A stretch of 64,000 nucleotides of DNA, from positions 285,845 through 349,844 of the forward strand of contig CAVXTW010000015.1 in the NCBI GenBank assembly GCA_963764695.1. The letters are read 5' to 3'. The position numbers and the translations under genes were made by a program. Of this stretch, positions 447 to 58,765 are shown piece by piece. The notes under the pieces are model-generated. The model saw nothing but the letters and a program-made list of their open reading frames with translations, searched no databases and was not told where the DNA came from. Within the stretch, counting starts at the first letter, position 1. Each line of letters starts with the position of its first letter. Source of the DNA: an uncultured delta proteobacterium (GTDB taxonomy: Bacteria; Myxococcota_A; Polyangia; Haliangiales; Haliangiaceae).

Positions 447-469
447 ATCCCCACGCCCCGGAGATAGAA

Positions 470-907: not shown

Positions 908-953
908 GCCCCGATGTCCGCGATGTCCACACTCAATCGATGGAGCACCAGCC

Positions 954-1319: not shown

Positions 1320-1477
1320 TCGGCTACCCCCTCGAGCTCTTGCTCGAGGAGGTGGCCTTCGTCGCCTACCACTTCCACTGGCCCCACGAGGAGGTGATGG
1401 CGCTCGAGCACGACGATAGACGGGGCTGGGTCGCTCGGATCTCGAGCATCAACCGGCGGATGAACACTGATGAGTGA
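1316..1477 (+). CDS. Small hypothetical protein (53 aa) coupled to the upstream ORF
   Basis: Its ATG overlaps the stop of the previous gene (ATGA). Protein-like sequence MIGYPLELLLEEVAFVAYHFHWPHEEV. Position matches P2 E' / tail-assembly cofactor. Confidence 0.4.
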   Translation: MIGYPLELLLEEVAFVAYHFHWPHEEVMALEHDDRRGWVARISSINRRMNTDE

Positions 1478-2213: not shown

Positions 2214-2896
2214 CGCTCGAGAAGGCGACCCTCACCAACTCGGTCACCGGCAAGCGCATCCCGGTGCAGTTCAACCCGGAGGAGTACAGCGTCCAGCGCG
2301 ACGTGAACTACGCGCAGTCGACCATCCCCGGACTCGGCGCGCCGCTGCTCCAGTTCGTCGCCGGCAACATGCAGACGCTCGAGATGGAGCTCTTCCTCGA
2401 CACCTACGAGGCGCACAGCGAGGGGTCGGCTGTGCTGAACGAGGCCGGCAGCGACGTCCGCGACCTCACCCGCAAGGTGACCGACCTCATGAGCATCGAC
2501 GGGACCACGCATGCCCCGCCGGTCCTGCTCTTCGTCTGGGGATCGCTGTCGTTCACCTGCGTCCTGGCCCGCGCGACCCAGAAGTTCACCATGTTCCTGG
2601 GCGACGGCACGCCGGTGCGCGCGACGCTCCAGGTCACGTTCAACGAGTTCAAGAACGTCGATCTCGAGGCCAAGGAGATCAAGCGCGAGACGGCGGACTA
2701 CTCGAAGACCTGGGAGGTCCACGAGGGCGAGACCCTGGCCGCCATCGCCCACGCCGAGTACGGCAACGCGAAGCTCTGGCGTCCCATCGCGCTCCGCAAC
2801 GGCATCGACCGGCCGCGTTCGCTCACCGTCGGCCAGCGGCTGATCGTGCCCCGGCTCCCGTATCGCGACCCCGACACCGGCGAGGTCTACCCGTGA
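2210..2896 (+). CDS. LysM-domain tube initiator / baseplate hub protein (Afp7/gp48-54-like)
   Basis: Tube-like N-terminal domain plus a C-terminal LysM (HEGETLAAIAHAEYGNAKLWRPIALRNGID...GQRLIVP). Confidence 0.85.
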   Translation: MTLEKATLTNSVTGKRIPVQFNPEEYSVQRDVNYAQSTIPGLGAPLLQFVAGNMQTLEMELFLDTYEAHSEGSAVLNEAGSDVRDLTRKVTDLMSIDGTTHAPPVLLFVWGSLSFTCVLARATQKFTMFLGDGTPVRATLQVTFNEFKNVDLEAKEIKRETADYSKTWEVHEGETLAAIAHAEYGNAKLWRPIALRNGIDRPRSLTVGQRLIVPRLPYRDPDTGEVYP

Positions 2897-4134
2897 CGCT
2901 GGGCCCGCGCTACGTGCCCGACTTCTCGCTCACCATCGACGGCGATCCGATCCCGTCCGAGCTGCGCGCGTCGATCTCCGGCATCACCCACGAGACCGGG
3001 CTCGAGGGCGCCGACCGCGTGGACATCGACATCGTCAACGAGCGGTTGCGCTGGCTCGACCACCCGCTGCTCGCGCTCAACACGGACGTGAAGCTGTCGC
3101 TCGGTTACCGCGACGGGGCCATGGAGCAGCTCTTCGTCGGCGAGATCGTCGGCCGCGAGTGCAGCTTTCCCTCGAGCGGCGTCCCCACCCTCCGCGTGGC
3201 GTGCCAGGACCGGATGCACCTGCTCCAGGAAGGCACCAGCACGCTCTCGTACGGGATCCCGATCCCGTCCTACGGCAACGTCCCCTTGCCCGATATGGTC
3301 GTCGCCGGCGCCGTGAGCGCGATGAACCTGCTCGTGCCGGCCTTCGATCCGGTGGGAGCGGCGCTGTCGATCCTCCTCGGCGGGCTGCAAGTGGCCGCCC
3401 TGGCCGACAAGGACGACGCACAGAAGTTCATCCGCAAGCAGGAGGGCCAGAGCTACTTCGACTTTCTGTCCATCGTCGCCCGCGAGAACGGCTGGGAGAT
3501 GTCCATCGACCACAGCGGGCCGCTGGGCGGGTGGATGCTGCGCTTCTCGTCGCCCCTGGCACACCTCAACGCCGACGTGACGCTCGCCTACGGCCGTTCG
3601 CTGATGGAGTTCACGCCGCGGCTGACCACCGTGGGCCAGGTGGCGGCGGTCAGCGCGAACGTCTGGGTGCCGATGGTGAAGCAGACCTTCACCGTGACCG
3701 TGGGCTGGGACTGGGACCGCGCCCAGCTCACGCTGAGCATCGCCCTGGCGGGCCTCCCGATCCCGACCACTCCGCCCGGCAACATCGAAGCGCGGGTGCA
3801 GTCGGTGTACCTGCTCGACCAGCCGGTCACGCTGACCACGGCGCCTCGATACATCGTCGGGACGCTCATCCCCAAGCTGAACGAGCGGCTCACCGGCTCG
3901 GGGAGCACCGTGGGCGATCCGCGGATCCGCGCCGGGACCGTGCTCCGCCTCGAGGGGCTCGGCGAGGAGTTCGGCGGGCTCTACCGAGTCACCCAGGCCA
4001 CTCACACCCTCGACAGCGGCGGCTATCGCACCAGCTTCGACGTGCGCAAGGACATCTGGTTCGGCTCCATCCCCAAACGCGAGCAGGGCGCCTGGCCGGT
4101 GGACTGGGTCGATCCGGCCGGCGCGAGCGCCTGA
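2893..4134 (+). CDS. Baseplate hub, phage late-control gpD / gp27-like (VgrG N-terminal module, Afp8-like)
   Basis: 413 aa with a GLYRVTQATHTLDSGGYRTSFDVRK-type gpD signature. Start overlaps the upstream stop. Confidence 0.9.
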   Translation: MTLGPRYVPDFSLTIDGDPIPSELRASISGITHETGLEGADRVDIDIVNERLRWLDHPLLALNTDVKLSLGYRDGAMEQLFVGEIVGRECSFPSSGVPTLRVACQDRMHLLQEGTSTLSYGIPIPSYGNVPLPDMVVAGAVSAMNLLVPAFDPVGAALSILLGGLQVAALADKDDAQKFIRKQEGQSYFDFLSIVARENGWEMSIDHSGPLGGWMLRFSSPLAHLNADVTLAYGRSLMEFTPRLTTVGQVAAVSANVWVPMVKQTFTVTVGWDWDRAQLTLSIALAGLPIPTTPPGNIEARVQSVYLLDQPVTLTTAPRYIVGTLIPKLNERLTGSGSTVGDPRIRAGTVLRLEGLGEEFGGLYRVTQATHTLDSGGYRTSFDVRKDIWFGSIPKREQGAWPVDWVDPAGASA

Positions 4135-4161
4135 GAAGAAACGATCGGAGAACGGACGACC

Positions 4162-4818
4162 ATGCTGCCAGAGCTCATCTCCAGCCTCATGCGCCCGGCG
4201 CCACCCGAGACCAGGAAGGTGTTCGGCGTCGTGGTGGCCACCGTGGTCAACAACGTCGACTCGACCATGGAGGGGCGCGTGCAGATCCACCTGCCGTGGG
4301 CGCCCGGGCTCGATCCGTGGGCGCGCGTGGCGGCGCCCATGGCCGGCATCCTGCACGGGGCCTACTTCATGCCGCAGTTCGGCCAGGAGGTGCTCGTGGC
4401 CTTCGAGGGCGGCGATGTCGGTGCGCCCTTCATCATCGGCGCGCTGTGGAACACGGTGGACCGCCCGCCCATCCTGGCCCCGACCGACGCCGTGACGAAG
4501 CGGGTGATGCGCACGCCGCTGGGGCACCAGATCGAGTTCGACGACGCCACCCAGATGCTCACCATCACCTCCACCACGCTGCAGAAGATCACGCTCGATC
4601 CGGCGCGCATCGAGCTCTCCGCCGGGATCGGCGCGGCCACCGTGCAGGTGACCACCGCCGGGACCGTGACCATCACGGCGTCCACCAGCATCGAGCTCAA
4701 CGCGCCCAGCATCACGGTGAACGGCGCGACCGCGGTGACGATCCAGGGCGGCACGAGCGCGACCTTGAACGGCGGCGCCCTGTGCACGGTGCAGGGCGGC
4801 CTCGTGAAGATCAACTGA
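4162..4818 (+). CDS. Spike protein, gpV/gp5-like (VgrG C-terminal beta-helix module)
   Basis: 218 aa with an OB-fold N-terminus and a C-terminal repetitive beta-helix (ITVNGATAVTIQGGTSATLNGGAL). Confidence 0.85.
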   Translation: MLPELISSLMRPAPPETRKVFGVVVATVVNNVDSTMEGRVQIHLPWAPGLDPWARVAAPMAGILHGAYFMPQFGQEVLVAFEGGDVGAPFIIGALWNTVDRPPILAPTDAVTKRVMRTPLGHQIEFDDATQMLTITSTTLQKITLDPARIELSAGIGAATVQVTTAGTVTITASTSIELNAPSITVNGATAVTIQGGTSATLNGGALCTVQGGLVKIN

Positions 4819-4834
4819 TCGAGAGGAGCAGGCC

Positions 4835-5116
4835 ATGTCGATCGCAGCGCGCGTCGGAGATCTGTCGGCCCACGGGGGCGTCGTCGTCGGCCCCGGTGTG
4901 CCCACGGTGCTGATCGGCGGGCTGCCGGCGGCAGTGGCCGGTGACTTCCATACCTGCCCGGTGGTCTCGGGCGTCGTCGCCCACGCGTCGACGCCGTTTC
5001 TGGCCGGCAGCGCCACCGTGCTGGTGGGCGGCAGGCCGGCGCTGCGCGCGGGGGACTTCTGCGCCTGCGGTGCGCCGATCGCCGGCGGGGCCGCCAACGT
5101 CCTCATCGGAGGCTAG
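4835..5116 (+). CDS. PAAR-domain spike tip protein
   Basis: 93 aa, Gly-rich, with conserved PAAR-like motifs (GDLSAHGG, GLPAAVAGDFHTCP, PALRAGD). Confidence 0.85.
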   Translation: MSIAARVGDLSAHGGVVVGPGVPTVLIGGLPAAVAGDFHTCPVVSGVVAHASTPFLAGSATVLVGGRPALRAGDFCACGAPIAGGAANVLIGG

Positions 5117-5118
5117 CG

Positions 5119-5529
5119 ATGTCGAGCGCGACGGATCCACGTGCGTTCCTCGGGGTCGGATGGTCCTTCCCCGTCGTGCTCGGGGCAGACGGCGACGTGG
5201 CGCTGGTGAGCCACGAGGAGGATGTCCGCCAGGCGATCCTCCTCATCCTCGAGACCGAGCCGGACGAGCGGGCGATGCGGCCGGACTTCGGCGCCGGGCT
5301 CCGGGCGCTGGCCTTCGAGCCGCTCAGTACCAGCACCATGGCGCTGGCCCGCCACCGCGTGGAGACCGCGCTGGTCACCTGGGAGCCGCGCATCGACAGC
5401 ATCGAGGTGAAGGCGATCGCGACGCCGAGCAAGGGCCGGCTCGACCTCGACATCCGCTACCGCGTGCGCACGACCAACACCTTCTACAACCTGGTCTACC
5501 CGTTCTACCTGCAGGAAGGGCGGTCGTGA
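5119..5529 (+). CDS. Baseplate wedge protein gp25/GPW-like (Afp9-like)
   Basis: 136 aa lysozyme-like GPW fold signature (LGVGWSFP...DVRQAILLILETEPDERAMRPDFGAGL). Confidence 0.9.
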   Translation: MSSATDPRAFLGVGWSFPVVLGADGDVALVSHEEDVRQAILLILETEPDERAMRPDFGAGLRALAFEPLSTSTMALARHRVETALVTWEPRIDSIEVKAIATPSKGRLDLDIRYRVRTTNTFYNLVYPFYLQEGRS

Positions 5530-8525
5530 GCTGCAGGCCCTCCAGGCCCGCTGTCGATGCGCGGGGGCGTGCAGCCATCGAGACGGAGCTGCGGGCGAAG
5601 ATCGCCGGTCACGTGCCGGGCTGGAGGCCGGGCCCGGGCTCCGCGAGCGGTGCGCTGCTCGAGGCCTTCACGCACCATCTCTGGCTCCTCGCCGCCCGCC
5701 TGGGCGAGGTGCCGGCGCGCAGCAAGCTCGCCTTCCTCGACATGCTGGGCACGCAGCTCCTGCCCGCGCTCTCGGCCCGGGCACCGCTCGTCTTCAAGCT
5801 GATGGAGACCGCGCCGTCGGCGGTGATCGTTCCGGAGAACACCCGGATCGCAGCTCCCGCGGCCCCCGCGCCGGCGTCGCCGCTCGCGGGATCGAGCGAC
5901 GCGAGGGCGCCCTCGGACGCGGTGGTGTTCGCCACGACCCAGTCGATCAGCGTCACTCCGGCCGCGCTGGCCGCGCTCTACAGCATCAGCCCGGCCGACG
6001 ACGCGGCGGCCGATCACGGCGCTGCGCTGGCGACCGGCTTCTCGCTGTTCGATGAGGCCGGGGCCATCGAGCACGTGCTCTACCTCGGCCACGACGCCCA
6101 CTTCGCGGTGCAGGGCGCGGTGACCATCCGCGTGTCCTTCCGAATGATCGCCTACCCGGCCGAGGCCGTCCGACAGGATCTCGCGCTGAAATGGGCCTAC
6201 CTCGCCGACGGCGACTGGGTGTCCTTGACGGTGGCCGAGGACGGCACCGAGGGCCTCACGCGCTCCGGCACCGTCACGCTGACCTCCACGTGCGGGCCGG
6301 CGGCGACTCTCGAGACGATCGGCGGCCACGAGACCTACTGGCTCCGGGCTGTCCTCGAGACGCCGCTCCCCCCCGAGGGCGCGGGAGGCGTGGGGCGGCT
6401 CCCGGCCGTGGACCTCGTCGAGGTGCGGGTCGAGTTCGCGACCAGCGGCGTGGTGCCCGACGCCGCGTTCACCGACACGGCGCCGGTTGACACGTCGAAC
6501 CGCTTCTGGCCGTTCGGCCGCCGTCCGGCGCTGCACACCACCTTCTATGTCGCGTGCGAGGAGGTCTTCGCGCGCAAGAACGCGAGCGTGACCATCTCGT
6601 TCCAGCTCTACGCAGGCGTGTCCGCAGATGGCAAACCCGAGCTCGACTGGGAATACAACGACGGGACAGCGTGGCGGACCCTCGGGTCAACCAGCCTCGA
6701 CGACGGTACCGCCGCTCTGACCGCGGCCGAGGGGGACGTCACCTTCACCTGCCCCGATGACTGGGGCCAGACCGAGGTGAACGGCACGAAGGGCTACTGG
6801 CTGCGCGTGCGCCTCGGCTCCGGCAACTACGGCGAGGAGATGAAGCTCACCGCAAGTGCCGACGGAGTGGTGAACCTGGACCCTGCGACGTTCGATCCGC
6901 CGGTCGTGACGGCGCTCGAGCTGGCCTACGTCTACCAGACCGAGCCCGAGCTGGTCAACCACTGCGTGACCTACAACGCCTTCGTCCACACCGATCAGAC
7001 CGACGCCTGCCGGCTGGCGCGTTCCCCGTTCGAGCCCTTCGTCCCGGTGGACGAGCTCGTTCCCGCGGTCCACTTCGGCTTCGACCGGGCGCTGCCCAGC
7101 GGCCTGGTCAGCCTCTACGTGCACTCGGCCTCGGAGGAGGTCATCGGCGAGGAGGGCGCGGCGGTGTCGCCCTACGTCTGGGAGTACCTCGGTGTGCGGG
7201 GCTGGACCGAGCTGGGCGTGCTCGACGAGACCGAGGGCTTCCAGCGGAGCGGGCTCATCCAGCTGGTCGGTCCGGGCGACATGATCGCCACTGCCGGCCT
7301 CGGCGGCTCGCTCTACCGGATCCGGGCGCGTCTGGTGCGCGGGGCCGTGGCGGAGGCGACAGCAGTCGAGGGCGTCTGGCTCAACGCCGTCTGGGCGACA
7401 CATCGCGAGCTGGTCTCGGGCGAGTTCCTGGGACAGAGCGACGGCAACCCGGGCCAGAGCTTCGACCTCGTGCGCGCGGTGGGGACCGTGCTCGAAGGTG
7501 AGGTCATCGAGGTGCGCGAATGGCGCGGCCAGGGCGCGGACTGGGAGACGGCAGCCGAGGGAGTCGACCAGGCCGATCTGCGCCTCGAGACCGATGCGGC
7601 CACCGGCGAGGTGACCGCGGTCTGGGTGCGCTGGCACGTCGTGGACCACCTCTACGACTCGGGCCCCGAGGACCGTCACTGCACGCTCGAGCGGAGCGGG
7701 GCCATCCTCCGGTTCGGCGACGGCACCTACGGCCGCATCCCCGCGGCAGGCTGTCAGGTCGCGGCCACCTACGACAGCGGTGGCGGTCTGGTCGGCAACG
7801 TGGAGGCGGAGACGATCGCCGAGCTTCGCGCCGGCGTCGCCTTCCTCCAGTCGGTGACAAATCCGGTGGCGGCGGCGGGCGGCGCCGAGGCCGAGACCAC
7901 CAGCCGCGTCGATGAGCGCGGGCCGCAGCGCCTCCGCCACCGCGATCGCGCCGTGACACCCGAGGACTTCGAGTGGCTCGCCCGCGAGGCTTCGCCCGCG
8001 GTCCATCAGGCCCGCTGCCGGTCGCTGGTCGGCCCGGAGGGCTTCGCCCGGCGCGGCTGGGTGACGCTGGTGGTGGTCCCGGACGGTCCCGAGCGCGAGC
8101 CCTCGCCGACGGCGGAGCTCCTGCGCCAGGTGCGTGACCACGTGGCCGCGCGCTGCCCGGCGGCGGTGGCCTCACGCATCCGCGTGTCCGGGCCGGTCTA
8201 CGTGCCGGTGACGATCATGGCCGAGGTGGTGCCGCTCGATCCCGAGCAGGTGGCCATCGTCCAGGCCCGCGTCCGGGCGAACCTCGACGCCTTCCTGCAC
8301 CCGGTCACCGGCGGTCCGGACGGCACGGGCTGGAGCTTCGGCGCGCCGGTCTACGTCTCGCAGCTCGCGCAGGTGGTCGAGGCGGAGACCGAGGGCGTGG
8401 ACTACTGCCCTCACCTTCGCGTCGCGGTGCGGGGGGCGATGGTCGAGGAGGTCGTGCGGGTGGGTGAGAACGCCCTGGTGAGCGCCGGAGACCACGAGAT
8501 CACGATGTCACTGGGGAGCGACTGA
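5526..8525 (+). CDS. Baseplate J-like protein (gp6/Afp11-like), large
   Basis: GTG start overlapping the gp25 stop (GTGA). ~999 aa in ORF 4941..8525. N-terminal baseplate-J domain. Confidence 0.8.
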   Translation: MSCRPSRPAVDARGRAAIETELRAKIAGHVPGWRPGPGSASGALLEAFTHHLWLLAARLGEVPARSKLAFLDMLGTQLLPALSARAPLVFKLMETAPSAVIVPENTRIAAPAAPAPASPLAGSSDARAPSDAVVFATTQSISVTPAALAALYSISPADDAAADHGAALATGFSLFDEAGAIEHVLYLGHDAHFAVQGAVTIRVSFRMIAYPAEAVRQDLALKWAYLADGDWVSLTVAEDGTEGLTRSGTVTLTSTCGPAATLETIGGHETYWLRAVLETPLPPEGAGGVGRLPAVDLVEVRVEFATSGVVPDAAFTDTAPVDTSNRFWPFGRRPALHTTFYVACEEVFARKNASVTISFQLYAGVSADGKPELDWEYNDGTAWRTLGSTSLDDGTAALTAAEGDVTFTCPDDWGQTEVNGTKGYWLRVRLGSGNYGEEMKLTASADGVVNLDPATFDPPVVTALELAYVYQTEPELVNHCVTYNAFVHTDQTDACRLARSPFEPFVPVDELVPAVHFGFDRALPSGLVSLYVHSASEEVIGEEGAAVSPYVWEYLGVRGWTELGVLDETEGFQRSGLIQLVGPGDMIATAGLGGSLYRIRARLVRGAVAEATAVEGVWLNAVWATHRELVSGEFLGQSDGNPGQSFDLVRAVGTVLEGEVIEVREWRGQGADWETAAEGVDQADLRLETDAATGEVTAVWVRWHVVDHLYDSGPEDRHCTLERSGAILRFGDGTYGRIPAAGCQVAATYDSGGGLVGNVEAETIAELRAGVAFLQSVTNPVAAAGGAEAETTSRVDERGPQRLRHRDRAVTPEDFEWLAREASPAVHQARCRSLVGPEGFARRGWVTLVVVPDGPEREPSPTAELLRQVRDHVAARCPAAVASRIRVSGPVYVPVTIMAEVVPLDPEQVAIVQARVRANLDAFLHPVTGGPDGTGWSFGAPVYVSQLAQVVEAETEGVDYCPHLRVAVRGAMVEEVVRVGENALVSAGDHEITMSLGSD

Positions 8526-49209: not shown

Positions 49210-50403
49210 CTAGGGCGTTGGTCGCAGTGATTCCAGGTACAGCTGCTGGAATCGCTGCACGTTGACCTCCCAGCGGCCGGCGAAGCGGGCGCGGTTTCCG
49301 ATCGCGTGGTTCGTGGGTTGCGTGTCTTGCCACGCGTCGAGGAGCACGGCGTCCTGCTCGTTGAGCAGCTCCCAGGCCTGCACGGCCGCGTCGACGGCGC
49401 CCTGGTGCACGCCGTCGGGCTGGACGCGGGGGTCGAAGTAGAAGTCGTGCCGATGTTCGTAGCTGGTCGCGTCGATCGGCAGGACGATCTCCATCGACAG
49501 CTGATCGGAGGCCGCGAAGACGCCGAGGTTGGGGAACAGCACGATGTAGGTCTGCCAGCGCTCGCCGCGCTCGAGCCATTGCGGCAGCGGCACGCCCGAA
49601 TAGTAGATGGGGCCCGCGCCGTAGCTGCCGCTGATCAGGGCCTCCGACCCGAGCATGTGGCGATCGATGATCGGGTCGTCCTTCCACGTGAGCGGATCCA
49701 TGCCCGCGAAGATCTGCGGATGGGCCGCCTTGAGGTGATACTCCTCCAGGGCGCTCTCGAGGTATCCCTTCCAGTTTCCGCGGACCCGGTCGGTGTGGAT
49801 GCTTCCGCGCGCGTGGTGATGAAGGGCGCTCCAGTCGCGCTTTCCGCCCAGGTGGCGGACCAGCGGATCGACGTGCTCGTCGAGCGAGGGCGCCTTGCCG
49901 TCGAGGTTGACGAAGATCGTGTTGCACCAGACGCCGGCGCGAACCGGAACCAGCCCGAGGCTGTCCTTGTCGAACCCGTCGAGCGTGTGGTGGCCGACGC
50001 CGCCGACGTAGGGCATCGCGCGGAGCCGCCCGTCGAGCCCGTACGTCCAGTTGTGAAACGGGCACACGAAGCTGCGCAGGCCCTGCGAGGCCTGGCACAA
50101 GAGCTTCATTCCGCGGTGGCGACAGGCGTTGTAGAACGCGCCGATCGTTCCGTCGTCGCCGCGGACCAGGACGATGTTTCGGCGGGCGACCGTGACGGGG
50201 ACTGCGTCGCCCGGGGCCGGGATGTCGGAGGCAACGCCGACGGCCACCCACGTCCGCGGAAACAGCCGCTCGCACTCGGCCTCGAAGACCGCCGGGTCGT
50301 AGTAGATCCGCGCCGGGAGCCCGCGGGCCGAGGTCGTCTCGGCATCCAGCTCCGCCGCCACGCCGGCGTCGAGGAAGTCGAGTGTCGTCGTCGGATGACT
50401 CAT
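49210..50403 (-). CDS. Rieske [2Fe-2S] non-haem iron oxygenase alpha subunit
   Basis: CRHRGMKL...CPFHNWTY Rieske motif. ATGA overlap with the aminotransferase gene. Confidence 0.85.
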   Translation of the reverse strand: MSHPTTTLDFLDAGVAAELDAETTSARGLPARIYYDPAVFEAECERLFPRTWVAVGVASDIPAPGDAVPVTVARRNIVLVRGDDGTIGAFYNACRHRGMKLLCQASQGLRSFVCPFHNWTYGLDGRLRAMPYVGGVGHHTLDGFDKDSLGLVPVRAGVWCNTIFVNLDGKAPSLDEHVDPLVRHLGGKRDWSALHHHARGSIHTDRVRGNWKGYLESALEEYHLKAAHPQIFAGMDPLTWKDDPIIDRHMLGSEALISGSYGAGPIYYSGVPLPQWLERGERWQTYIVLFPNLGVFAASDQLSMEIVLPIDATSYEHRHDFYFDPRVQPDGVHQGAVDAAVQAWELLNEQDAVLLDAWQDTQPTNHAIGNRARFAGRWEVNVQRFQQLYLESLRPTP

Positions 50404-51719
50404 GCCGTCGCTCCGAGCTCGGCTGATGGACCGGTGAGCTGGCCGAGTGCGGTGAGAAACATGCCCAACCTCCGGGCGAGCTCCGAGAAGAATTCCCGAT
50501 CCGCGGTGTACGGAGGGCCGAGCCCGAACTCGATGTGGTCCTGCTGGATGTCCTCGATCCACAGGAGCAGGCCGCACGAGAGCGCCGTCCGCTGCACGGC
50601 CAGGTAGAACTGGTCGCCGCCACCCTCGGGCGACGTGCACGGAACGATCAGTCGACCCATGGCGCCGATGACCGACATCTTCGCTCCGGGGCAGCGCTCG
50701 CAGATCGACCCGAGGACCTCCGCGAGCCGCGATTCGATGGACGCGATGGCCCTGGCGGGGAGCAGTCGGGACTCGATCTCATCCAGCACGGCGATGGCGA
50801 TCTCGCACGACAGGACGTGGCCCGAGTATGTATGTCCGCCCCAGAAGCGCCCCGACTCCGCCAGCGAGTCGCGCACGTCGGCCGTGACCAGCGTGGCGAA
50901 GATGGGGATGAAGCCGGCGCCCAGGGCCTTCCCGGTGGCGACGATGTCAGGGACCACGTTCCACCTGTTGAGGGCCACGGCCGGGCCGATCCGCCACATG
51001 CCCTCGAGCACTTCATCGGAGACCAGCAGGATCCCGTACCGGGTGCAGATCTCGCGGATGCGCGGCCAGTACTCGTCCGGCACCGGCCCGCCGTTCGTCG
51101 TCGGCACGCCGACGAATGCAGCGATGGTGTCTGGCCCCTCCGCCTCGATTAGACGCTCCAGCGCCGAGGCGCACATCAGGTCGCAGGAGGGATACGCGAG
51201 GCCGAAGGGACACTTGAAGCAATCCTGCTGTTCGAGCTGCACGAAGTTCGGCACGTCCTGTGCGCGGACGCTGCCGGAACCGCCCAGGGCCAGGGCGCCC
51301 GTGGTGAGCCCGTGGTAGGCGCCTCGCCGTCCGATGATCTTCGTCCGCGACGGTGAGTGCCGCGTTCGCGCGACTTGAAGAGCGGCCCGCAGCGCCGCCT
51401 CGACGGCATCTGCCCCGCTCTGGTAGAAGCCGGTTGCCGCGAACTCCGGCATCAGCGCCAGCAGGCGATCGGCGAGGCGGTCGGCGGCGCCGTTCTGAAA
51501 GTAGGCCATGCTCGCGAAGCTGAACGCCTCTGTCTGTGCGCGCAGGACGTCCGCGACCGGCCCGGGCATCGTGTGTCCGAGCACGCAGTTGTACGCGCCG
51601 GAGGTCGCGTCGAGATATCGATTTCCCTCCGCGTCGTAGTAGTGGTAGCCGTCGGCCCGCTCGACGCGCGGATTCCGCCGGTTGAAGAGGTAGTAGAGGA
51701 TCTTGTCACTGGTGGGCAT
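50400..51719 (-). CDS. Class-III (omega) aminotransferase, PLP-dependent
   Basis: 439 aa with an aspartate-aminotransferase fold-type I class III signature. Confidence 0.8.
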   Translation of the reverse strand: MPTSDKILYYLFNRRNPRVERADGYHYYDAEGNRYLDATSGAYNCVLGHTMPGPVADVLRAQTEAFSFASMAYFQNGAADRLADRLLALMPEFAATGFYQSGADAVEAALRAALQVARTRHSPSRTKIIGRRGAYHGLTTGALALGGSGSVRAQDVPNFVQLEQQDCFKCPFGLAYPSCDLMCASALERLIEAEGPDTIAAFVGVPTTNGGPVPDEYWPRIREICTRYGILLVSDEVLEGMWRIGPAVALNRWNVVPDIVATGKALGAGFIPIFATLVTADVRDSLAESGRFWGGHTYSGHVLSCEIAIAVLDEIESRLLPARAIASIESRLAEVLGSICERCPGAKMSVIGAMGRLIVPCTSPEGGGDQFYLAVQRTALSCGLLLWIEDIQQDHIEFGLGPPYTADREFFSELARRLGMFLTALGQLTGPSAELGATA

Positions 51720-53484
51720 GTGCGTCGCTTCCTCGGCCCAGCTCGAGCGGCGGAGCTCGCCACTCTCCGGGGCGCGGATACATTCGTCGGCGGAACCGTT
51801 CCCAGATCTGCTCGACCTCGCTGTCGCCGGGCCGCAGCGGGATCCTCAGCAGCGTCTCCAGCGCGAGCGCGCGCTCGACATCGTCGAGCCTCGCCGTGCC
51901 GAAGGCCGAGCCGAAGCGGCGCTTCGTGTCGGGCAGGTCGCCCGAGGTCGCCGCCAGATCCAGGAAGTGCCCCACGCTGCGGGCCGGTCCGGACGGGCCC
52001 GGGTCCAGCCGGCGCCAGAGCCGGGCGGCCTCCGCGAGGTCGCCCGCGTGATAGCGCAGGCCCGCGACCAGCATCGTGAGCGGAACGCCGCGATGGCCCT
52101 GCTCCAGCGTCGCGTCGAGCCGTGACGACACCGGCCAGGAGAAGTAGTCGCAGACGTCCTCGCTGTCGGGCCTGCCGGCGAACGGGTTGTCGAGCAAGGC
52201 GGCGAGCGATCGCGAGGCCTCGAAGTCGCCGCGGCTGCATCGGTCCAGCGCCGGCAGATGGTCGTGGAGCCAGCGGTCCCTGCTCACCTCGACGAGCGCG
52301 CGCGCGTTGGCCTCGACCCCGAGCAGCCCCTCTTGAGCGACGAACGAGTACTCGGACAGCGTTCCCGCGTAGACGTGCACCGCCGCGACGTCCAGGATCG
52401 AGCAGTCGCGCACGAACACGTCCGCGTCGAACCGGCGGCAGATCCGCAGGCAGGCGCCGAGGAGTGAGGCGGTGTTCCGGACGGGCAGCTCGAACGCGGC
52501 CCGGAAGTCGCGCGAGTAGGGCTTCTCGAGCTCCACCTGGGCGAGGCTGCCGCCCCATCCGGCCGTGAAGCCGGCGCGGCTCCACGCGCGCAGGAGGTCC
52601 GCAGTATCGACAGTGGCGGACCAGCCGGCGATGCGATCTCCGTAGTACTCGTCGGACAACATCTCCCGGACGCAGTGCTCGACGGCGTGCTCGACGCGGT
52701 GGCCGCCCGCGACGGCCAGCGACATGCTGTCGAGCGCTGGATCGACGAGCAGCACCCCGACCACCGGCAGCCGACCGCCGAGCGTCATGTCGAGGTAGAG
52801 AAGCTCGCGGCCCTGCGCCCTCAGATATGCGGCGACCCGCTCCACGGGCCCGCCGGCAAAGGTCTCCGGGTCAATGAGCGGAAACCGCGCCGTGCGAAGG
52901 GCGAACTTGCGGAGCGCGTACCGCTCGAAGGTCTCGAACAGGGCCGCGACGATCGCCTCGGATATGGTCGAGCCGACCGCGCCGCCGTTGTTGCGCCCGA
53001 CCACCTCGAGCCCGATCTCCCTGGGAAACAGCAGCTCCTCGCCGCCCGCCAGGCCCACGTAGCGATGGACTCTGTGCTCGGTTCGCGGAGACGCCGCCGC
53101 CATGGTCGCCCGCAGCCCGCTGCCGCCCGGGAGCGTGTCGATGCATTCATCGACGTCAACGCGGCGCTCGTCCCAGAGGGGCGCGATCTCGCGCCGGCAG
53201 GGGAGCCAGTCCGGATACCAGAGGTCGCAGCTCACGTTCTCGATCATCTCGCCGTACGCGCCGGCGAGGCACCGCTGCGGCGACAGCGTCTCTCCTGACT
53301 GGCTGCCCGACGCGTGACCGAACCATGGCGAGCTGAACACCGGGTCCGTCAGGATGGCGTACGAGATGCAGGTCGCTCCATACTGCCTCGTCCCCACCTC
53401 CTGTAGCGGATGAAGGTCGTGGCGGACGGCGGCGCCGCTGAAGGCGCGCAATGCCTCCCCGGGAGAGAGCTGCCGGATGGTCAT
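51706..53484 (-). CDS. YcaO-domain protein with C-terminal TPR-like extension
   Basis: YcaO ATP-binding block (GGAVGSTISEAIVAALFETFERYA). ATGA overlap with the upstream NRPS gene. Confidence 0.7.
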   Translation of the reverse strand: MTIRQLSPGEALRAFSGAAVRHDLHPLQEVGTRQYGATCISYAILTDPVFSSPWFGHASGSQSGETLSPQRCLAGAYGEMIENVSCDLWYPDWLPCRREIAPLWDERRVDVDECIDTLPGGSGLRATMAAASPRTEHRVHRYVGLAGGEELLFPREIGLEVVGRNNGGAVGSTISEAIVAALFETFERYALRKFALRTARFPLIDPETFAGGPVERVAAYLRAQGRELLYLDMTLGGRLPVVGVLLVDPALDSMSLAVAGGHRVEHAVEHCVREMLSDEYYGDRIAGWSATVDTADLLRAWSRAGFTAGWGGSLAQVELEKPYSRDFRAAFELPVRNTASLLGACLRICRRFDADVFVRDCSILDVAAVHVYAGTLSEYSFVAQEGLLGVEANARALVEVSRDRWLHDHLPALDRCSRGDFEASRSLAALLDNPFAGRPDSEDVCDYFSWPVSSRLDATLEQGHRGVPLTMLVAGLRYHAGDLAEAARLWRRLDPGPSGPARSVGHFLDLAATSGDLPDTKRRFGSAFGTARLDDVERALALETLLRIPLRPGDSEVEQIWERFRRRMYPRPGEWRAPPLELGRGSDAHAHQ

Positions 53485-56400
53485 GCTCGACGCCGCTCCT
53501 GTTCGCCATCGGCGACCGCGGCGTGGGCCTCGAAGAATCGGGTCACCAGCGCGACCGGATCGAAGTCTCCCGCGTCCGCGCGCGTCCTCGACGGCAGCTC
53601 GCCGGTCTCGTCCAGGTAGGGGCCGAGCAGGTTCGCCGGATCGGTCGGGTGAGTGGCACAGAAGGCGGCCAGACGATCTCGCCAGGTCCGGCGGGGGACG
53701 ACCGCCAGGTCCAGGCCGCTGGCGGCAGAGGCGGCGAGCACCGTCTCGCGCGTGATCTCGCGCTCGCCGTGGACCAGATGGAAGGCGCGAGGAGGCGCGT
53801 CCCGCTCGCTCGCGAGGTCATCGATCGACTGCACGAGGAGATCGACCGGCGTGAGCGCGAAGCCCGGCATGTCCTCGGGAACGCTGCGCAGCTTGAACAT
53901 CGCTGCCAGATACAGCTCGACCCAGCCTGCCGGATTGGCATCGATGCCGCGCGAGTGCGGTCCGATGTAACCGACTCGATAGATCCGGGCCGGGACTCCC
54001 CGCGCCGCGGCGCGAGCGACGAGCTGGTCGGCCACCCACTTGGTCCCGCCGTAGCCCTCGATGTGATCGGGCGGGTCGATGACCAGCGATTCCGGCCCAG
54101 GGCTGCCGGCGAGCGGGACCACATCGATGGAGGAGACGTGATGCACCTCCTTCGGCCGGCTGGCGACGGCGAGGCGCAGGAGCTCGAGCGTGCCACGGAC
54201 GTTGGGCGCGCGGAGCGAGTCGTAGGACCTGACGTGATTGACGGCGGCGCCGACGTGGAAGATGCGGCTGGTGCGCTCGCTCAGGAGCCTCCACGCGCGC
54301 GCGGACAATCCCAGCCAGGGCAGCGCCAGAATCGCCTCGCACGACGCTGACCCGGTCGGCGCCGGCGTCCAATCCGGCGAGCTCCAGAGCACGCCGGAGC
54401 CTGTGGCCAGCTGCCGCCACGCTCGGTGCTCGAACGAGGCAGCGGATCCGGTCCCGGGTGCGGTCCAGGAGCGCGCGGAGGAGATGGCGCCCCAGATAGC
54501 CGGTCGCGCCGGTGACCAGGATGTCGCCGGCGCTCGCGGAGGCTCGACCGGGTCGCGGGACGATGTCGTCGGGGAGCGACGCGTCGGCCAGGAGAGTCCC
54601 CCGGGCGGGCCGCTGTCGGCGCGGACGTCCGCCCGGTCCGGACGCGATGGCGGCGGCCATGCTCTCGACGGTCGCCAGCTCGTCAACCGAGCGCAGCGAC
54701 AGCTCGACCCCGAAGCGGGTCCGGATCTCGTGGATCAGGCGAACGGCCAGGAGCGAGTGCCCGCCGAGGTCCACGAACCTGTCATGGATTCCTATCTGCA
54801 CGACTCCCAGCAGCTCGCTCCAGATCGCGGCCAGGCGCGTCTCGACGTCGGTCCGAGGAGGGACCGGATCGGCGAAGTGGAGCGGCTCGGCGCCGATCGA
54901 CCGGAGCGCGTCCCGGTCGATCTTGCGGTGGCGGGTCAGCGGCCAGCTCGACAGCGGCACGACCGCCGCGGGAAGCATGTGCGAGGGCAATCGGTCCGCG
55001 AGATGCTCCCTGAGCGCCGCGGGGGAGAGCGTGGCTCCCGCCAGCACGTATGCCATCAGGCGCGGGGCGGCCGACCCGTGCTCGTCGAGCAGCACGACGG
55101 CGTCGATGATCCCGGCATGCTGGCGCAGGGCGTTCTCGATCTCGCCGAGCTCGACCCGGTGCCCGCGCAGCTTGACCTGATGGTCGACGCGGCCGAGAAA
55201 CTCGATCTCGCCGCTGTCGAGCCACCGGCCCAGATCGCCGGTGCGGTACATGCGGCCGCCGGGATCGCGAGCGAACGGATCGGCGAGGAACCTCTCCCGC
55301 GTGAGAGCCGGGTTGTCGAGATAGCCACGGGCGAGGGTATCGCCGCCGATGTAGATCTCGCCGGTCGCCCCGATCGGCTGCGGCATCCTCTCCGGGCTCA
55401 GCACGTAGAGCTGGGTGTGAGCAATGGGCCGGCCGATGGTCACGAGCCGACCCGGGCGACAGCGATGAAGGGTCACCTGGCACGACGCCTCGGTCGGGCC
55501 ATAGGCGTTGAAGACGTCGCGGCCCGGCAGCGTGCGGGCGATGTGTCCGAGCAGCGCGAGCGGAAGCGCCTCGCCGCCACAGATCACCGTCCGCAGCGAG
55601 GGGAGGCCGCACCCTCTCCTGTCGATCTCGTCGAGGATGGCGGGCAGTAGCGACGGGACCAGGTCGACGACGGTCACGCCATCTCGCTCGATGCACCGGA
55701 CGATCTCGACCGGGTCGGATGAGTCTTCGGTCAGCACCACGCGGCCGCCCCAGCAGAGCGGAGCCAGAAGTTGCCACACGGCGGCATCGGATCCCGGACA
55801 GGCGAGGCCGAGGAATCGGTCGTCGCGGGTCAGCGTGCGCGCTCGCTGCGCGCCCGCGAACGCCTTCAGGAGCGATCCGTGCTCGACGAGGACGCCCTTG
55901 GGCGTGCCCGTTGACCCGGACGTGTAGATGACGTAGGCGAGATGGCTGGCTGCCATCTCCCGGCGCAGAGGGCCGCCGTCGCACCGGTCGATCTGCTCGG
56001 CGACGGCCGGGTCGTCGAGCGCGACGGAGTGGCGATCGCCAGCGTGCTGCCGCGCCGCCGCGTGACAGACAACGATCGATGCGGCCGCGTCGGCGAGCAT
56101 CCAGCGGATCCGCTCGCGAGGCTGGCCGGGATCGATCGGGACGAACGCGCACCCGGCCTTCCACGCGCCGAGCATCGCGACGATCGCGTCTCGTCCCCGC
56201 TCCAGGCAGATCGCGATACGCGCTTCCGGTGGCGGCGCAAGGGCGCGCAGGAAGCGAGCCAGCTGGTTCGCCCGCCGGTCCAGCTCCGAGAAGCGCAACG
56301 GCGGCCCCTGATGGTCGACCACCGCGACGGCCTCGGGACTCTCCGAGGCGCGGCGCTCGATCAGCCGGGCGACGCTTCCGGCGCGGCCGTCCCCTGCGAA

Positions 56401-57839
56401 GGGCGACCAGTCGCGGTAGAGCTTCCCGCGCTCTTCGTCGGTCAGGAGGTCGAGCGAGAAGATGGAGTCGGCCGGACGTGCCAGCGCCTGCTCCAGGAGT
56501 CGACGGTAGTGAGTTGAACATTCTCGCGACCAGGCGCGGTGCGAATGCGGCGGCGTGATCGATGACGATGTCGATCCCGCCGTCCCGTTCCTGGTAGGTC
56601 CAGGACAGCGCGACGGCGGCCGGCGTCGCGCCCTCGCCGGCCTCGGTGAAAGCGACGTCGAAGGGGCGCCCTCCCCGGCCGAGCCGGCGTCCTGCGTCGT
56701 CGTCGAGCCCTTCCGCGTGAGACGCCGCCAGGTCGCACTGCTCGCGCACCCGCATCACGGCGTCCTCGAAGCCGACATCATCGGGCAACCGGACCCTGAT
56801 GGGGAGCGGTCGCCGAGAGGTCGCCGCCGGTAGCACCGTCTCGATGCAGATGTCCCGCGCTCCACCGTATCGGGCCAGGAGTGCGAACAGCGCGGCGAGC
56901 AGCCCGTCTCTCGGCTCGACGTTCCGAGCTGCCGCCCAGCCGCGGAGCTGTTCCGCCGTCCCTCGCTCCAGGGCGAACCGGTGCCGTCCGCGAGCGGCGT
57001 CCGCGACCGGATCTTGATGGGCACCGTCGCCGCCCGCGGCAAGACGCAGGGGCGGGAGGTCGGCGAGCTGACCCAGCCAGAACGCGACCGAGCGGCGGCG
57101 GTCGGTCGCGTCGATGGTCACCCGGCGCCGGTCGAGGTGAGCGCGCAGCTCCACGATCCGGCGGACGAGGTCCGGGGGCAGAGCGCCGTCGAGAGGACCG
57201 AGATCCGTGGCCCGGTCGAAGTCTTCGTGCTCGCGGTAGCCGGGCAGCCGATCCAGATCTCGCGACGTGTAGAGCCGGGTCGCTCCAACCTCCGCGATCG
57301 TCGCACGGTACGTCCGCCGGGCGATGCTGTCGACGTGGTCGTCGAACATCCGCTGGCTCAGGTCGGCGCAACGGAGTATCAGCTCGTGCAGCCGCATCCG
57401 GGGTGAGATGGCGAAGCGCTCGATGGCCAGGATCGCGCCCGCGTCGATGGCAGCGTCCAGCTCGTAAAGAGAGACGCCGTACTCGGGGCTCCCGTCCAGG
57501 ATGGCGAACATGGCCGCGACGATCGGGTCGCCGCGCTGGATGGGAATGATGCCGCTGTGAACCCCGAAGAAGGAGATACCCGCCGAGGCCAGAAAGCTGG
57601 CCTGGAGCAGAAGCGCATTGTCGATGGAGAACCCGACGCCATCGGAGCACATGGATCGAGCTCTGGAAGGATCGGCCTGGAGGTCGCGCGCGGCTGCAAA
57701 CGGCACTCGATGCCGGGCACAGAAGGAGCCGAGGCGGTCGCTGTTGCCAAAAACTCCGTCGAACCCGGTACCCTCGTGTGAGTGCGCTCGACACCGCTTG
57801 CTGCAGCAGCGCGCCGTCGCCAACGAAGATCATCGTCAC
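53481..57839 (-). CDS. NRPS module with formyltransferase-like, degenerate C-like, A, T (PCP) and R (thioester reductase) domains; 3 frame breaks at ~57760, ~56510 and ~54375
   Basis: Formyltransferase-like domain MTMIFVGDGALLQQAVSSALTRGYRV / FGVHSGIIPIQRGDP. A-domain cores: LAYVIYTSGSTGTPKGV, NAYGPTEAS, GEIYIGGDTLARGYL, YRTGDLGRW, GRVDHQVKLRGHRVELGEIE. PCP: DLGGHSLLAVRL. R domain: VTGATGYLGRHLL...YGGTKW. The pieces lie in three frames (ORFs 56778..57839, 54782..57823, 53818..56322, 53481..54686) but are colinear. Confidence 0.75.
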
Positions 57840-57934: not shown

Positions 57935-58765
57935 TTGCCGTACGAATTCGTCGCGCCCTGTTTCGCCCTCGCCGCAGCGGTCCTGTGGGGCGGCGCAGAC
58001 TTCAGTGGGGGGATGGGAGCGAGAGGCGCACATCCTGTCCTCGTCGTCGTGCTGTCACAGGTGGCGGGGCTTGCGTGCCTCTTGACTTTCGCGCTCGCGG
58101 CCGGCGAGCAGATGCCGCCCGCGCCCGCGCTTCTGTGGGGCGGCGCCGCCGGTGTGGGCGCGAGCATCGGCTATCTCTGCTTCTACCGGGCGCTGGCCAT
58201 CGGGAAGATGGGCATCAACTCGCCGATCGCGGCGATCGTGACGAGCGGACTGTCCGTCCTCTACAGCGTCGCGATCTTCGATCAAGGGCTGCCGACGACC
58301 ACGCAGCTGGTCGGCTTCGCGATCGCGCTGGTCGCGGTCTGGCTGATGACGGTGTCGAGCGGAGAGACCAGGGGCCTGGGGCTCGCCATCTGCGCCGGCC
58401 TTGCCTTCAGCGCGTACCTGACCTGCAGCAAGCAGGCCACCGGCGAGGCCGTCTACTGGCCTCTGGTCGCCGCGCGCGCCGCGGGGGTCGCCGTCCTCGC
58501 TCCGGCGCTCGTCTCCGCGCGGGTACGCGAGCGGCCGGCCAGCTGGTGGTACATCGTCGGCGCGGGTGTCCTCGATGCGGCCGCCAATGCGCTGTTCGTG
58601 TACGCCACGCGGCACGGGCGCCTCGACGTGGCCACGATCCTGTCGGCCTTCTATCCGGCGATCACGGTGCTGTGCGCCAGCGTGATCCTGCACGAGCGCG
58701 CGACCCCGCTGCAGCGCGCGGGGATCGCCTGCGCCCTGGTGGCCATCCCGCTGACTATGGCGTGA
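57935..58765 (+). CDS. EamA/DMT-family transporter (10 TM)
   Basis: 276-aa hydrophobic protein with duplicated EamA-type halves. Confidence 0.8.
   Translation: MPYEFVAPCFALAAAVLWGGADFSGGMGARGAHPVLVVVLSQVAGLACLLTFALAAGEQMPPAPALLWGGAAGVGASIGYLCFYRALAIGKMGINSPIAAIVTSGLSVLYSVAIFDQGLPTTTQLVGFAIALVAVWLMTVSSGETRGLGLAICAGLAFSAYLTCSKQATGEAVYWPLVAARAAGVAVLAPALVSARVRERPASWWYIVGAGVLDAAANALFVYATRHGRLDVATILSAFYPAITVLCASVILHERATPLQRAGIACALVAIPLTMA

Follow-up and report, generated by a model that had tools for sequence, protein, structure and literature searches.

The window analysed here is a 64,000-nucleotide stretch of contig CAVXTW010000015.1 from an uncultured delta proteobacterium, with a GC content of about 70%. 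On its minus strand, at 49210–57839, four translationally coupled genes encode a single-module non-ribosomal peptide synthetase (NRPS), a YcaO protein, a class-III aminotransferase (AT) and a Rieske oxygenase, each of which was confirmed by Pfam. We are strongly confident that this cassette is real, intact and conserved. According to the domains and relatives of the enzymes, the cassette may convert one alpha-amino acid into a small nitrogen-rich cyclic-amidine (imidazoline-type) amine; we put forward this full route tentatively, as a leading candidate that may well need revision. The genes of the cassette and the divergent transporter gene are located as follows.

Counted with the transporter gene, the unit comprises five genes.
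53481–57833, minus strand: single-module NRPS, 1451 aa after removal of three inserted T's, delineated by tblastn with the L002 orthologue and by Pfam domains.
51706–53484, minus strand: YcaO protein, 592 aa (Pfam YcaO, 95.4 bits).
50400–51719, minus strand: class-III (omega) aminotransferase, 439 aa (Aminotran_3, 193 bits).
49210–50403, minus strand: alpha-only Rieske non-haem iron oxygenase, 397 aa (Rieske and Ring_hydroxyl_A).
57935–58765, plus strand: EamA/DMT-family transporter (Pfam EamA, 79.7 bits), divergent from the NRPS gene; the start codon is uncertain.

The NRPS and YcaO genes overlap by 4 nt (ATGA), the YcaO and AT genes by 14 nt, and the AT and Rieske genes by 4 nt (ATGA). An earlier note on this DNA, made from the sequence alone, had described a compact operon with overlaps of 4–14 nt; these overlaps are confirmed, and the unit is kept at about ten other loci. 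The YcaO, Rieske and EamA assignments of that note were also confirmed by Pfam. The NRPS starts at the ATG at 57833, as the orthologues begin with MIF..., and a GTG at 57839 is the alternative. The open reading frame (ORF) of the Rieske oxygenase spans 49210–50640, and its true start is the ATG at 50403. The EamA/DMT protein is probably an exporter, judging from its family.

In the window as assembled, the NRPS is spread over four consecutive frame segments, as traced by tblastn with the intact 1501-aa L002 orthologue. The frame changes at residues ~25, ~450 and ~1198, where the following extra bases were located.

57762–57763, minus strand, site 1: one extra T, GGGT[T]CGAC, in a GTYRAC context; absent in L011 and L005.
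56517–56518, minus strand, site 2: one extra T, AATG[T]TCAAC, in a GTYRAC context; common to the window, L011 and L005.
54330–54331, minus strand, site 3: one extra T, GAT[T]CTGG, in a GATC context; absent in L011 and in the JGI contig L010.

Deletion of the three T's gives a 1451-aa NRPS without an internal stop. Thus, the gene is not irreparably truncated, which the earlier note had named as an outcome that would undo its reading. We conclude that the frameshifts are consensus errors of long-read metagenome assembly and not gene decay; our confidence in this is high at sites 1 and 3 and good at site 2. Three frame changes within 4.4 kb, of which one recurs in two related assemblies, could also mean that the frameshifts are real and that the window holds a decaying pseudogene cluster. 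We regard this as extremely improbable. The contig L011 (ENA, 764 kb) aligns with the window over 8901 nt at 99.73% identity, and exactly two indels separate them, namely the T's absent at sites 1 and 3. In the protein P0016, which is 85% identical and comes from a separate data source, ...LVARMLTHYR runs in a single frame across site 2. The window was also compared with L005, a 93%-identical metagenome-assembled genome (MAG). The differences by codon position (first/second/third) are 22/19/47, 30/38/90 and 14/13/31 in the corrected NRPS frames, and 75/26/29 in the uncorrected upstream frame, where the third-position bias is lost. The bias in the corrected frames indicates that purifying selection acted on the frames downstream of each 'frameshift'.

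Single-base indels are also found elsewhere. In L005, the genes for the NRPS, the YcaO and the Rieske oxygenase carry 1-nt insertions that are peculiar to it and for the most part adjoin GATC, and because of such insertions its YcaO is called as two fragments in the source annotation. L005 (MFD03602.bin.2.3) belongs to the Nanopore Microflora Danica MAG set (PMC12313526). In the window, the unrelated RtcB RNA-ligase gene (33288–34527, minus strand) is likewise broken into three reading frames by three or more frame changes, and this is an independent sign of single-base indel errors in the window assembly. The indels separating related MAG contigs (the three sites of the window, and L005 positions 5576, 6212, 9151–9154, 9337 and 13186) fall inside or adjoining GTYRAC and GATC, and sites 1 and 2 carry the same GT[T]CRAC signature. 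We suspect that these indels are methylation-linked Nanopore basecalling errors. As site 2 is common to three related assemblies (the window, L011 and L005), a slight chance of a real ancestral frameshift is left at this site.

Two other explanations of the frame changes were considered. Programmed frameshifting at site 2 was rejected; no slippery or shifty motif is present, and the GT[T]CRAC signature is shared with site 1, where the extra T is demonstrably specific to the assembly. A split gene, in which the A-T-R part of the NRPS is translated from a GTG at 56322, is unsupported; the upstream frame stays open as far as 54782. The 65 codons between site 2 and this GTG still match the orthologues, and the substitutions there are too few for a selection test.

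Outside the window, the order NRPS–YcaO–AT–Rieske, the 4–14-nt overlaps and an intact NRPS of 1474–1501 aa are found at L002/L003/L004, L006, L007, L008, L022, L024 and the P0012 locus. Among these complete-cassette loci, the YcaO identity is 52–58%, the GC content is 57–70%, and the flanks vary by locus. Of the cassette, the partial locus L015 (GC 49%) contains only the EamA gene and the beginning of the NRPS gene. Taken together, the cassette recurs in about ten soil-metagenome loci with a host GC content of 49–70%. A divergent EamA gene is also located at L002/L003, L007, L008, L011, L015, L022, L024 and the P0012 locus. The range of GC content, the variable flanks and an integrase at one locus suggest that the cassette is a mobile, self-contained, horizontally scattered unit. 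This phage-type integrase gene lies directly downstream of the Rieske gene of L022 (14611–15921), and L024 carries a duplicated Rieske and EamA pair together with an OprB porin gene (14920–17162). The integrase of L022 and the duplication and porin of L024 are a hint of mobility and of clade-specific elaboration.

The YcaO clade is very small and isolated. A word-indexed search of 5.8 billion proteins gave only 15 YcaO homologues, all with at least 52% identity, and a look-up of the exact YcaO sequence of the window yielded no contig. HMMER against 1.84 billion representatives clustered at 50% identity gave one full-length YcaO cluster and four fragments at E <= 1e-30, and the scores fall from 1125 bits to 105 bits at the nearest non-family YcaO. 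The next relatives (about 580–630 aa) match the catalytic domain only, and the cassette was found once among 185,579 species genomes. PF02624 is carried by all 15 homologues. In the source annotations, the family is called 'hypothetical' or 'S12 methylthiotransferase accessory factor'.

Characterised YcaOs all act on peptides or proteins (PMC13063428). Accordingly, the YcaO could be merely co-located with the other genes and modify a ribosomal peptide or protein, with the NRPS, AT and Rieske oxygenase forming a separate pathway. The gene context makes this very doubtful. At every locus, the YcaO gene lies between the NRPS and AT genes with the 4-nt (ATGA) and 14-nt overlaps, and the 15/15 homologues with readable context are in the cassette, so that no other context is known for this single 50%-identity cluster. 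TfuA, ThiF/E1 and FMN dehydrogenase genes were found neither in the Pfam-scanned parts of the window (all large ORFs at 42.7–64 kb and ten of the largest open frames at 4.9–41.2 kb) nor among the called genes within ±10 kb at ten annotated orthologous loci. This agrees with the earlier note, which had seen no TfuA or dehydrogenase partner. No RRE or precursor peptide gene was detected among the called genes at the ten loci (±10 kb) or in the window flanks, where short precursor ORFs were not searched exhaustively. No conserved precursor-like ORF or protease is nearby. The ATGA overlap at every locus and the lack of nearby partners typical of post-translationally modified peptides of ribosomal origin tie the YcaO to the NRPS pathway.

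The domains of the NRPS are arranged as follows.

57181–57833, minus strand: formyltransferase-like (F-like) domain, residues ~1–217 (profile match ~14–217).
56440–57127, minus strand: C-terminal lobe of a condensation (C) domain, residues ~236–464 (profile match ~238–476).
54922–56400, minus strand: adenylation (A) domain (AMP-binding, 254 bits; AMP-binding_C; TIGR01733, 419 bits against a cut-off of 317).
54646–54837, minus strand: thiolation (T, peptidyl carrier protein) domain (PP-binding, 56.8 bits), with the GGHSL serine in LGGHSLLAV.
53484–54516, minus strand: thioester reductase (R) domain (NAD_binding_4, split over two frames), with GATGYLG and YGGTK (YxxxK).

This order, F-like, partial C, A, T and R, had been proposed in the earlier note and is borne out by Pfam, by NCBIfam and by a profile of five orthologous NRPS N-termini searched against the PDB sequences. 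The orthologous NRPSs were gathered from loci found via YcaO. When the NRPS N-terminus itself was the query of a word-indexed homologue search, alone or as a five-sequence profile, nothing but frameshift fragments of the same MAG lineage came back.

All the core motifs of the A domain are present (LAYVIYTSGSTGTPKG, NAYGPTE and YRTGDL). The ten-residue specificity code was read against GrsA-PheA, and as a control D falls at position 235. The code is DAWSIGACQK in the window and in L006, and DTWSISQSQK, DTWSIGSCQK or DAWSVGACQK elsewhere. Since D235 and K517 are present, the substrate should be an alpha-amino acid. The extraction of the code after frame correction, which the earlier note had proposed, thus gives the class of the substrate and no assignment of the side chain. 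Known codes for Phe, Lys, Thr and Leu agree at 5–6 of ten positions at best, and no call was made. The catalytic motifs of the A, T and R domains (D235/K517, GGHSL, and GxxGxxG with YxxxK) are all present. The C-terminal piece of the R domain alone matches TIGR01746 (Thioester-redct) with 159 bits, and for the A-T-R part the MxcG model of NCBIfam gives 416 bits (cut-off 2300).

In the earlier note, the C-like domain was described as lacking HHxxxDG. The motif is indeed absent, but only half of the domain is there, and the whole N-lobe that carries HHxxxDG is missing from the NRPS, which has no complete two-lobe fold. With the five-orthologue profile, this region matches only residues 948–1202 of the LgrA C domain (4e-18), and the Pfam Condensation match is limited to profile positions 189–277. 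The half C domain is presumed to be non-catalytic and to act as a scaffold or in docking.

The N-terminal domain probably has a formyltransferase fold according to several comparisons. With the five-orthologue profile, WlaRD is matched at 4.7e-8, and ArnA, Fmt and Rv3404c at 1e-6 to 1e-7; the window copy alone finds Rv3404c at 2.8e-5. The ArnA/fmt models of NCBIfam are matched at 1e-6. The motifs VHSGIIPIQRG and IDAG are present in the window copy, and His92 and Asp130 are invariant. This domain is the best-conserved part of the NRPS N-terminal region. An AlphaFold model of the N-terminal 414 aa from a 3-sequence alignment had a predicted local distance difference test score (pLDDT) of 36.4 and was unusable. 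The nearest relatives outside the cassette, found in a metagenome scan with 33–36% identity, are standalone 222-aa proteins with a Formyl_trans_N score of 44.9 bits. These proteins read N-V-H, whereas the cassette copies read G/S-V/I-H. About 35 positions are invariant between the cassette and standalone proteins, including His92, Asp130 and the HSGI(I/L)PxxRG loop. These features clearly point to descent of the F-like domain from bona fide formyltransferases, and formyl transfer by the domain is plausible.

The genes of the standalone formyltransferases (L016–L021, for example L019 815–8364; GC 72–77%) adjoin those for a Lys/Orn N-monooxygenase, an aspartate decarboxylase, a C-A-T-T NRPS and a major facilitator superfamily (MFS) transporter. 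A setting of Lys/Orn N-monooxygenase, NRPS and MFS genes is typical of N-hydroxy-ornithine formyltransferases in hydroxamate siderophore clusters. These loci are probably hydroxamate siderophore clusters.

The cassette NRPS resembles LgrA (F-A-T) in that a formyltransferase fold opens the NRPS and would act on the first aminoacyl-S-T. The profile aligns to residues ~62–173 of the LgrA F domain and, within the C domain of LgrA, to the C-terminal lobe. The match to the F domain is weak (domain E about 0.03–0.05), and LgrA keeps N-x-H and continues with elongation modules. In contrast, the cassette NRPS is a single module that ends in R and has a half C domain between F and A.

The AT carries the pyridoxal 5'-phosphate lysine in ATGKALGAG together with PF00202, as is characteristic of class III. 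The nearest structures are omega-, putrescine and polyamine transaminases (5lh9, 1.2e-48; 6gwi, 8.8e-44; 9j4z, 3.4e-36), and the score against the daptide aminotransferase model is 165 bits (cut-off 450). Release by an R domain followed by class-III transamination is the established logic of myxochelin B. The earlier note had drawn this parallel from the pairing of a terminal reductase with a class-III aminotransferase, and the MxcG and Thioester-redct matches are in agreement with it.

The Rieske oxygenase has the ligands CRH-x17-CPFH and the iron site HLKAAH, and matches the Pfam Rieske and Ring_hydroxyl_A models with 65.9 and 65.8 bits, which places it in this class. The nearest structure is the carnitine monooxygenase CntA (6y8j, 2e-29). 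The best NCBIfam model is GbcA, with 131 bits against a cut-off of 670, so that the protein is not an equivalog of GbcA. No gene for a Rieske beta subunit or a reductase was found nearby. The closest relatives are alpha3-type enzymes such as CntA, GbcA and Stc2, which are likewise alpha-only, about 400 aa long and active on small charged amines; the cassette enzyme is far under the cut-off of this group and has no dedicated reductase gene in the cassette. CntA and GbcA hydroxylate the carbon next to a charged nitrogen in small molecules. A small cationic heterocycle as the substrate of the cassette enzyme would fit this relatedness.

The YcaO consists of a YcaO domain, with a Pfam score far above the cut-off of 25.7, and a C-terminal helical domain. 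The ATP/Mg-binding glutamates E79, E82, E184 and E187 are invariant in 14 YcaO sequences, and align to GEYFER/SEVFER of 4q84 (E75/E78/E199/E202). An AlphaFold model has a mean pLDDT of 50.8, with helices at 390–568 and a pLDDT of 80–92 over 410–555. The earlier note had described a tetratricopeptide repeat (TPR) tail. The tail is helical, but no Pfam TPR model is matched. The general chemistry of YcaOs is that ATP activates an amide oxygen, and a nucleophile then attacks. The cassette is predicted to be catalytically competent, since its NRPS has all the core motifs of A, T and R, its AT the lysine, its Rieske oxygenase both sets of ligands (Rieske and iron) and its YcaO the four glutamates.

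In daptides, the DapY YcaOs join a transaminase-installed amine and the neighbouring amide to a C-terminal imidazoline, with ATP and Mg (PMC12338566). YcaOs use amine nucleophiles for amidines, and exogenous ammonia for backbone amidines, as cited in the same work (PMC12338566). E. coli YcaO thioamidates the ribosomal protein uL16 without TfuA, and its acidic isoelectric point (pI) of 4.4 is tied to uL16 binding (PMC13063428).

Thioamidation by the cassette YcaO would give a thioformamide or thioamide amine, with sulfide from primary metabolism as proposed for E. coli YcaO. The E. coli enzyme (PDB 4q84–4q86; 586 aa) is the closest solved and characterised relative (4q84, 1.3e-16), and resembles the cassette protein (~590 aa) in length, helical C-terminal domain, glutamates and lack of a TfuA/E1 partner, and TfuA is unneeded in that group. 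It is also the top match of Foldseek with the poor YcaO model, which at a TM score of about 0.22 is weakly informative. However, the kinship is remote. The identity is ~18%, the score against YcaO_for_S12 of NCBIfam is 45.8 bits (cut-off 700), and about 105 bits lead to the nearest non-family YcaO. The E. coli gene is a standalone housekeeping gene for an acidic protein, whereas the cassette YcaO lies in an NRPS operon and has a pI of 5.6 (family range 5.3–6.2); by score and pI it is not of the uL16 type. No sulfur-transfer gene is conserved across the ten loci, and the AT gene directly after the YcaO gene offers a ready internal amine nucleophile. We consider thioamidation improbable. Of the thioamide and the amidine that the earlier note had left as alternatives, neither is demonstrable from sequence; an amidine would have a direct precedent in DapY, and a thioamide only the distant relationship to E. 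coli YcaO.

The proposed imidazoline route is as follows. The A domain would load an alpha-amino acid onto the T domain, a step to which the motifs of both domains point directly. The F-like domain may then formylate the alpha-amine, or may attach another one-carbon or acyl group; this is the weak step. The R domain, by analogy with its family, would free the thioester as an N-acyl amino-aldehyde, and the AT would turn the aldehyde into a primary amine to give an N-acyl vicinal diamine, with putrescine as a possible donor. The YcaO would O-phosphorylate the amide with ATP, and the attack of the new amine would close a 4-substituted 2-imidazoline, in analogy with DapY, MxcM, EctC and 5-formyl-tetrahydrofolate (5-formyl-THF) cycloligase. 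Finally, the Rieske oxygenase could speculatively hydroxylate the side chain or a position adjoining nitrogen, perhaps with aromatisation of the ring to an imidazole, and EamA would export the product. The logic of a formamide, a vicinal amine and ATP operates in 5-formyl-THF cycloligase. A chemistry of this kind is inferred throughout from related enzymes; the imidazoline mechanism is the best-supported hypothesis at present, and we hold it with the same reserve as the full route.

In one clade, a further enzyme could take part in the oxidation. A 654–667-aa FAD/NAD_binding_8 amine-oxidase-like protein adjoins EamA at L002 (2169–4172), L022 (2322–4295), L024 (2215–4218) and the P0012 locus. 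It occurs only in the clade with 54–58% identity, and has a weak match to PigB (3e-12). By this similarity, the PigB-like flavoprotein could be a candidate heterocycle-aromatising oxidase, and could act similarly to the Rieske enzyme.

The cassette appears to combine known kinds of enzymes, namely a reductive-release NRPS with a transaminase, and amide activation by a YcaO. All four proteins are far under the equivalog cut-offs of the nearest named families (MxcG, daptide AT, YcaO_for_S12 and GbcA). In the myxochelin B/pseudochelin system (MxcG, MxcL, MxcM), a thioester reductase likewise frees an aldehyde, which a class-III aminotransferase then converts to an amine. For pseudochelin, the beta-amino amide is reportedly then cyclised to an imidazoline by the amidohydrolase MxcM (cited in PMC12338566). 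MxcG is a C-A-T-R protein that acylates lysine with dihydroxybenzoate, whereas the cassette has neither a working C domain nor aryl-acid machinery, but has an F-like domain. The candidate for cyclisation in the cassette is an ATP-dependent YcaO and not an amidohydrolase, and a Rieske oxygenase is added.

In the daptide system (DapB/C/D and DapY), a carbonyl is made, a class-III transaminase adds an amine, and a YcaO closes the imidazoline with ATP (PMC12338566). The daptide substrate is a ribosomal peptide with a leader, and its carbonyl comes from oxidative decarboxylation of the C-terminal Thr and not from NRPS reduction. The motif PxPxP is present in DapY and absent in the cassette YcaO (0/14 family members), which in this motif departs from the azoline-forming and DapY-type enzymes. 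The pathway to ectoine and hydroxyectoine (EctB, EctA, EctC, EctD) consists of a class-III transaminase that makes a diamine from an aldehyde, N-acylation, cyclodehydration to a cyclic amidine, and hydroxylation by a non-haem iron enzyme. The proposed route is analogous in its logic, a comparison that we draw from established knowledge. The enzymes of acylation, cyclisation and hydroxylation are non-homologous to those of the cassette, no NRPS is involved, and a six-membered ring is made from aspartate semialdehyde.

Several observations weigh against the imidazoline route. The window copy of the F-like domain scores 16.4 bits against the Formyl_trans_N cut-off of 26.1 in Pfam, and where the N-x-H...D triad has Asn, the five orthologues examined all have Gly or Ser (Gly in the window). 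Because of the lost Asn and the sub-threshold score, formyl transfer is uncertain, and a product without an N-acyl group would offer the YcaO no evident amide. The N-formylation proposed in the earlier note is accordingly plausible but not established. The nearest characterised YcaO, the distant E. coli enzyme, is a thioamide-forming protein modifier and not a cyclodehydratase, and the family lacks the PxPxP of DapY-type enzymes. To our knowledge, action on a small molecule that is not a peptide has so far been demonstrated for no YcaO. The code of the A domain (DAWSIGACQK and its variants) fits no assignable specificity, and the structure models of the YcaO and of the NRPS N-terminus are too poor for pocket inspection. 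Recurrent agmatine and putrescine genes beside the cassette hint at a building block or a step beyond the proposed route.

The loss of the catalytic Asn in all cassette copies, in contrast to the standalone relatives that keep it, could mean that the F-like domain is dead or repurposed. The half C and F-like domains could then both be structural remnants, and the YcaO would activate a side-chain carboxamide, a ureido group or the amide of a dimer to give another cyclic amidine or a guanidine-like ring; Q331 of the specificity pocket could fit a polar side chain. This was judged unlikely, to about the same degree as thioamidation. The retained His92, Asp130, HSGI(I/L)PxxRG loop and the other positions among the ~35 invariant ones argue for a retained ligand-binding or catalytic role, as does the high conservation of the domain within the N-terminal region.

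The agmatine and putrescine genes recur at five independent loci and vary between them. Agmatine deiminase genes lie beside the cassette in L001 (4922–6913 region), L007 (14326–16330 region) and L008 (11553–12620), and N-carbamoylputrescine amidase genes in L001 and L007. L006 has genes for an agmatinase (4308–5213), an Sfp-type phosphopantetheinyl transferase and a saccharopine-dehydrogenase-like protein, the last of which is also encoded in L008. L024/L025 have a pyruvoyl arginine decarboxylase gene (L024 19060–19605) and a second copy each of the Rieske and EamA genes. The NCBIfam cut-offs are passed by AguA in L001 and L008, by AguB in L007 and by agmatinase in L006. The presence of three non-homologous agmatine/putrescine routes beside the cassette is hard to ascribe to chance, and suggests that putrescine or agmatine is an amine donor or a building block.

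In another possible reading, the YcaO would form an acyclic amidine from the NRPS-derived amide and an external amine (putrescine, agmatine or ammonia), or a polyamine would be a true building block of the product; the AT may then act on the polyamine and not on the NRPS aldehyde. The recurrence of the AguA, AguB, agmatinase and pyruvoyl arginine decarboxylase genes, the saccharopine-dehydrogenase-like genes, the nearness of the AT to putrescine and polyamine transaminase structures, and the ability of YcaOs to take exogenous ammonia for backbone amidines (cited in PMC12338566) are consistent with such a product. However, the agmatine and putrescine genes are absent from the window, L002/L003 and L022, and hence are accessory and not core. 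They are explained equally well as a nearby source of the diamine donor that the AT would use, and the pairing of an R domain with the AT matches the myxochelin-B amination of a released aldehyde. We therefore regard the acyclic amidine or polyamine product as unlikely, though a little less so than thioamidation. Putrescine as a self-cyclising amine donor for the AT would be the simplest explanation of the accessory genes within the imidazoline route.

Beyond EamA, genes for an alpha/beta hydrolase, PadR, an M23 peptidase and a HAD hydrolase were identified by Pfam, and a CheA-like kinase and a response regulator are encoded downstream of the Rieske gene. None of the flanking genes of the window is kept with the cassette at the other loci. 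A promoter and terminator scan of 48.9–58.2 kb gave nothing exceeding the shuffled expectation, and Rfam (at gathering thresholds) and ARAGORN gave zero matches in the window.

Two other loci of the window were observed. Immediately downstream of the RtcB gene, an 848-aa major-vault-protein homologue is encoded at 30749–33295 on the minus strand (MVP_shoulder, 85.9 bits; Vault_3, 43.6 bits). A gene for the sigma-54 activator RtcR (34615–36234, plus strand) lies beside the RtcB and vault-protein genes, and it is unusual for a bacterial vault homologue to be encoded within an Rtc locus for RNA repair. Rfam gave neither a Y-RNA nor any other family here. At ~1–20000 on the plus strand, an extracellular contractile injection system or phage-tail-like locus is located, with Baseplate_J at 4914–8525, NHL and Tail_P2_I at 11788–13839, and a 1129-aa eCIS_core protein at 16470–19859. 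The last lies in the sole low-GC stretch of the window (0.60 at 18–20 kb).

In the searched full-text literature, whose coverage is incomplete, no description of an NRPS–YcaO–AT–Rieske cluster or of a YcaO acting on a non-ribosomal small molecule was found. The cassette YcaO may be the first to act on a small molecule derived from a non-ribosomal carrier, in which an N-formyl amino acid is reduced, transaminated and closed to a 2-imidazoline and then to an imidazole; this more specific proposal is made with greater caution than the route in general. The case of the NRPS shows that indels in long-read MAGs can disguise a functional NRPS as a pseudogene. The cassette family is known only from uncultured soil bacteria, and thus has been invisible to annotation. 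If the proposal is true, the ATP-dependent amide activation by YcaO would extend beyond peptides and proteins to small-molecule biosynthesis, and the cassette would provide a compact four-enzyme, assembly-line route from an amino acid to imidazoline or imidazole amines, a pharmacologically important scaffold with few known biosynthetic origins.

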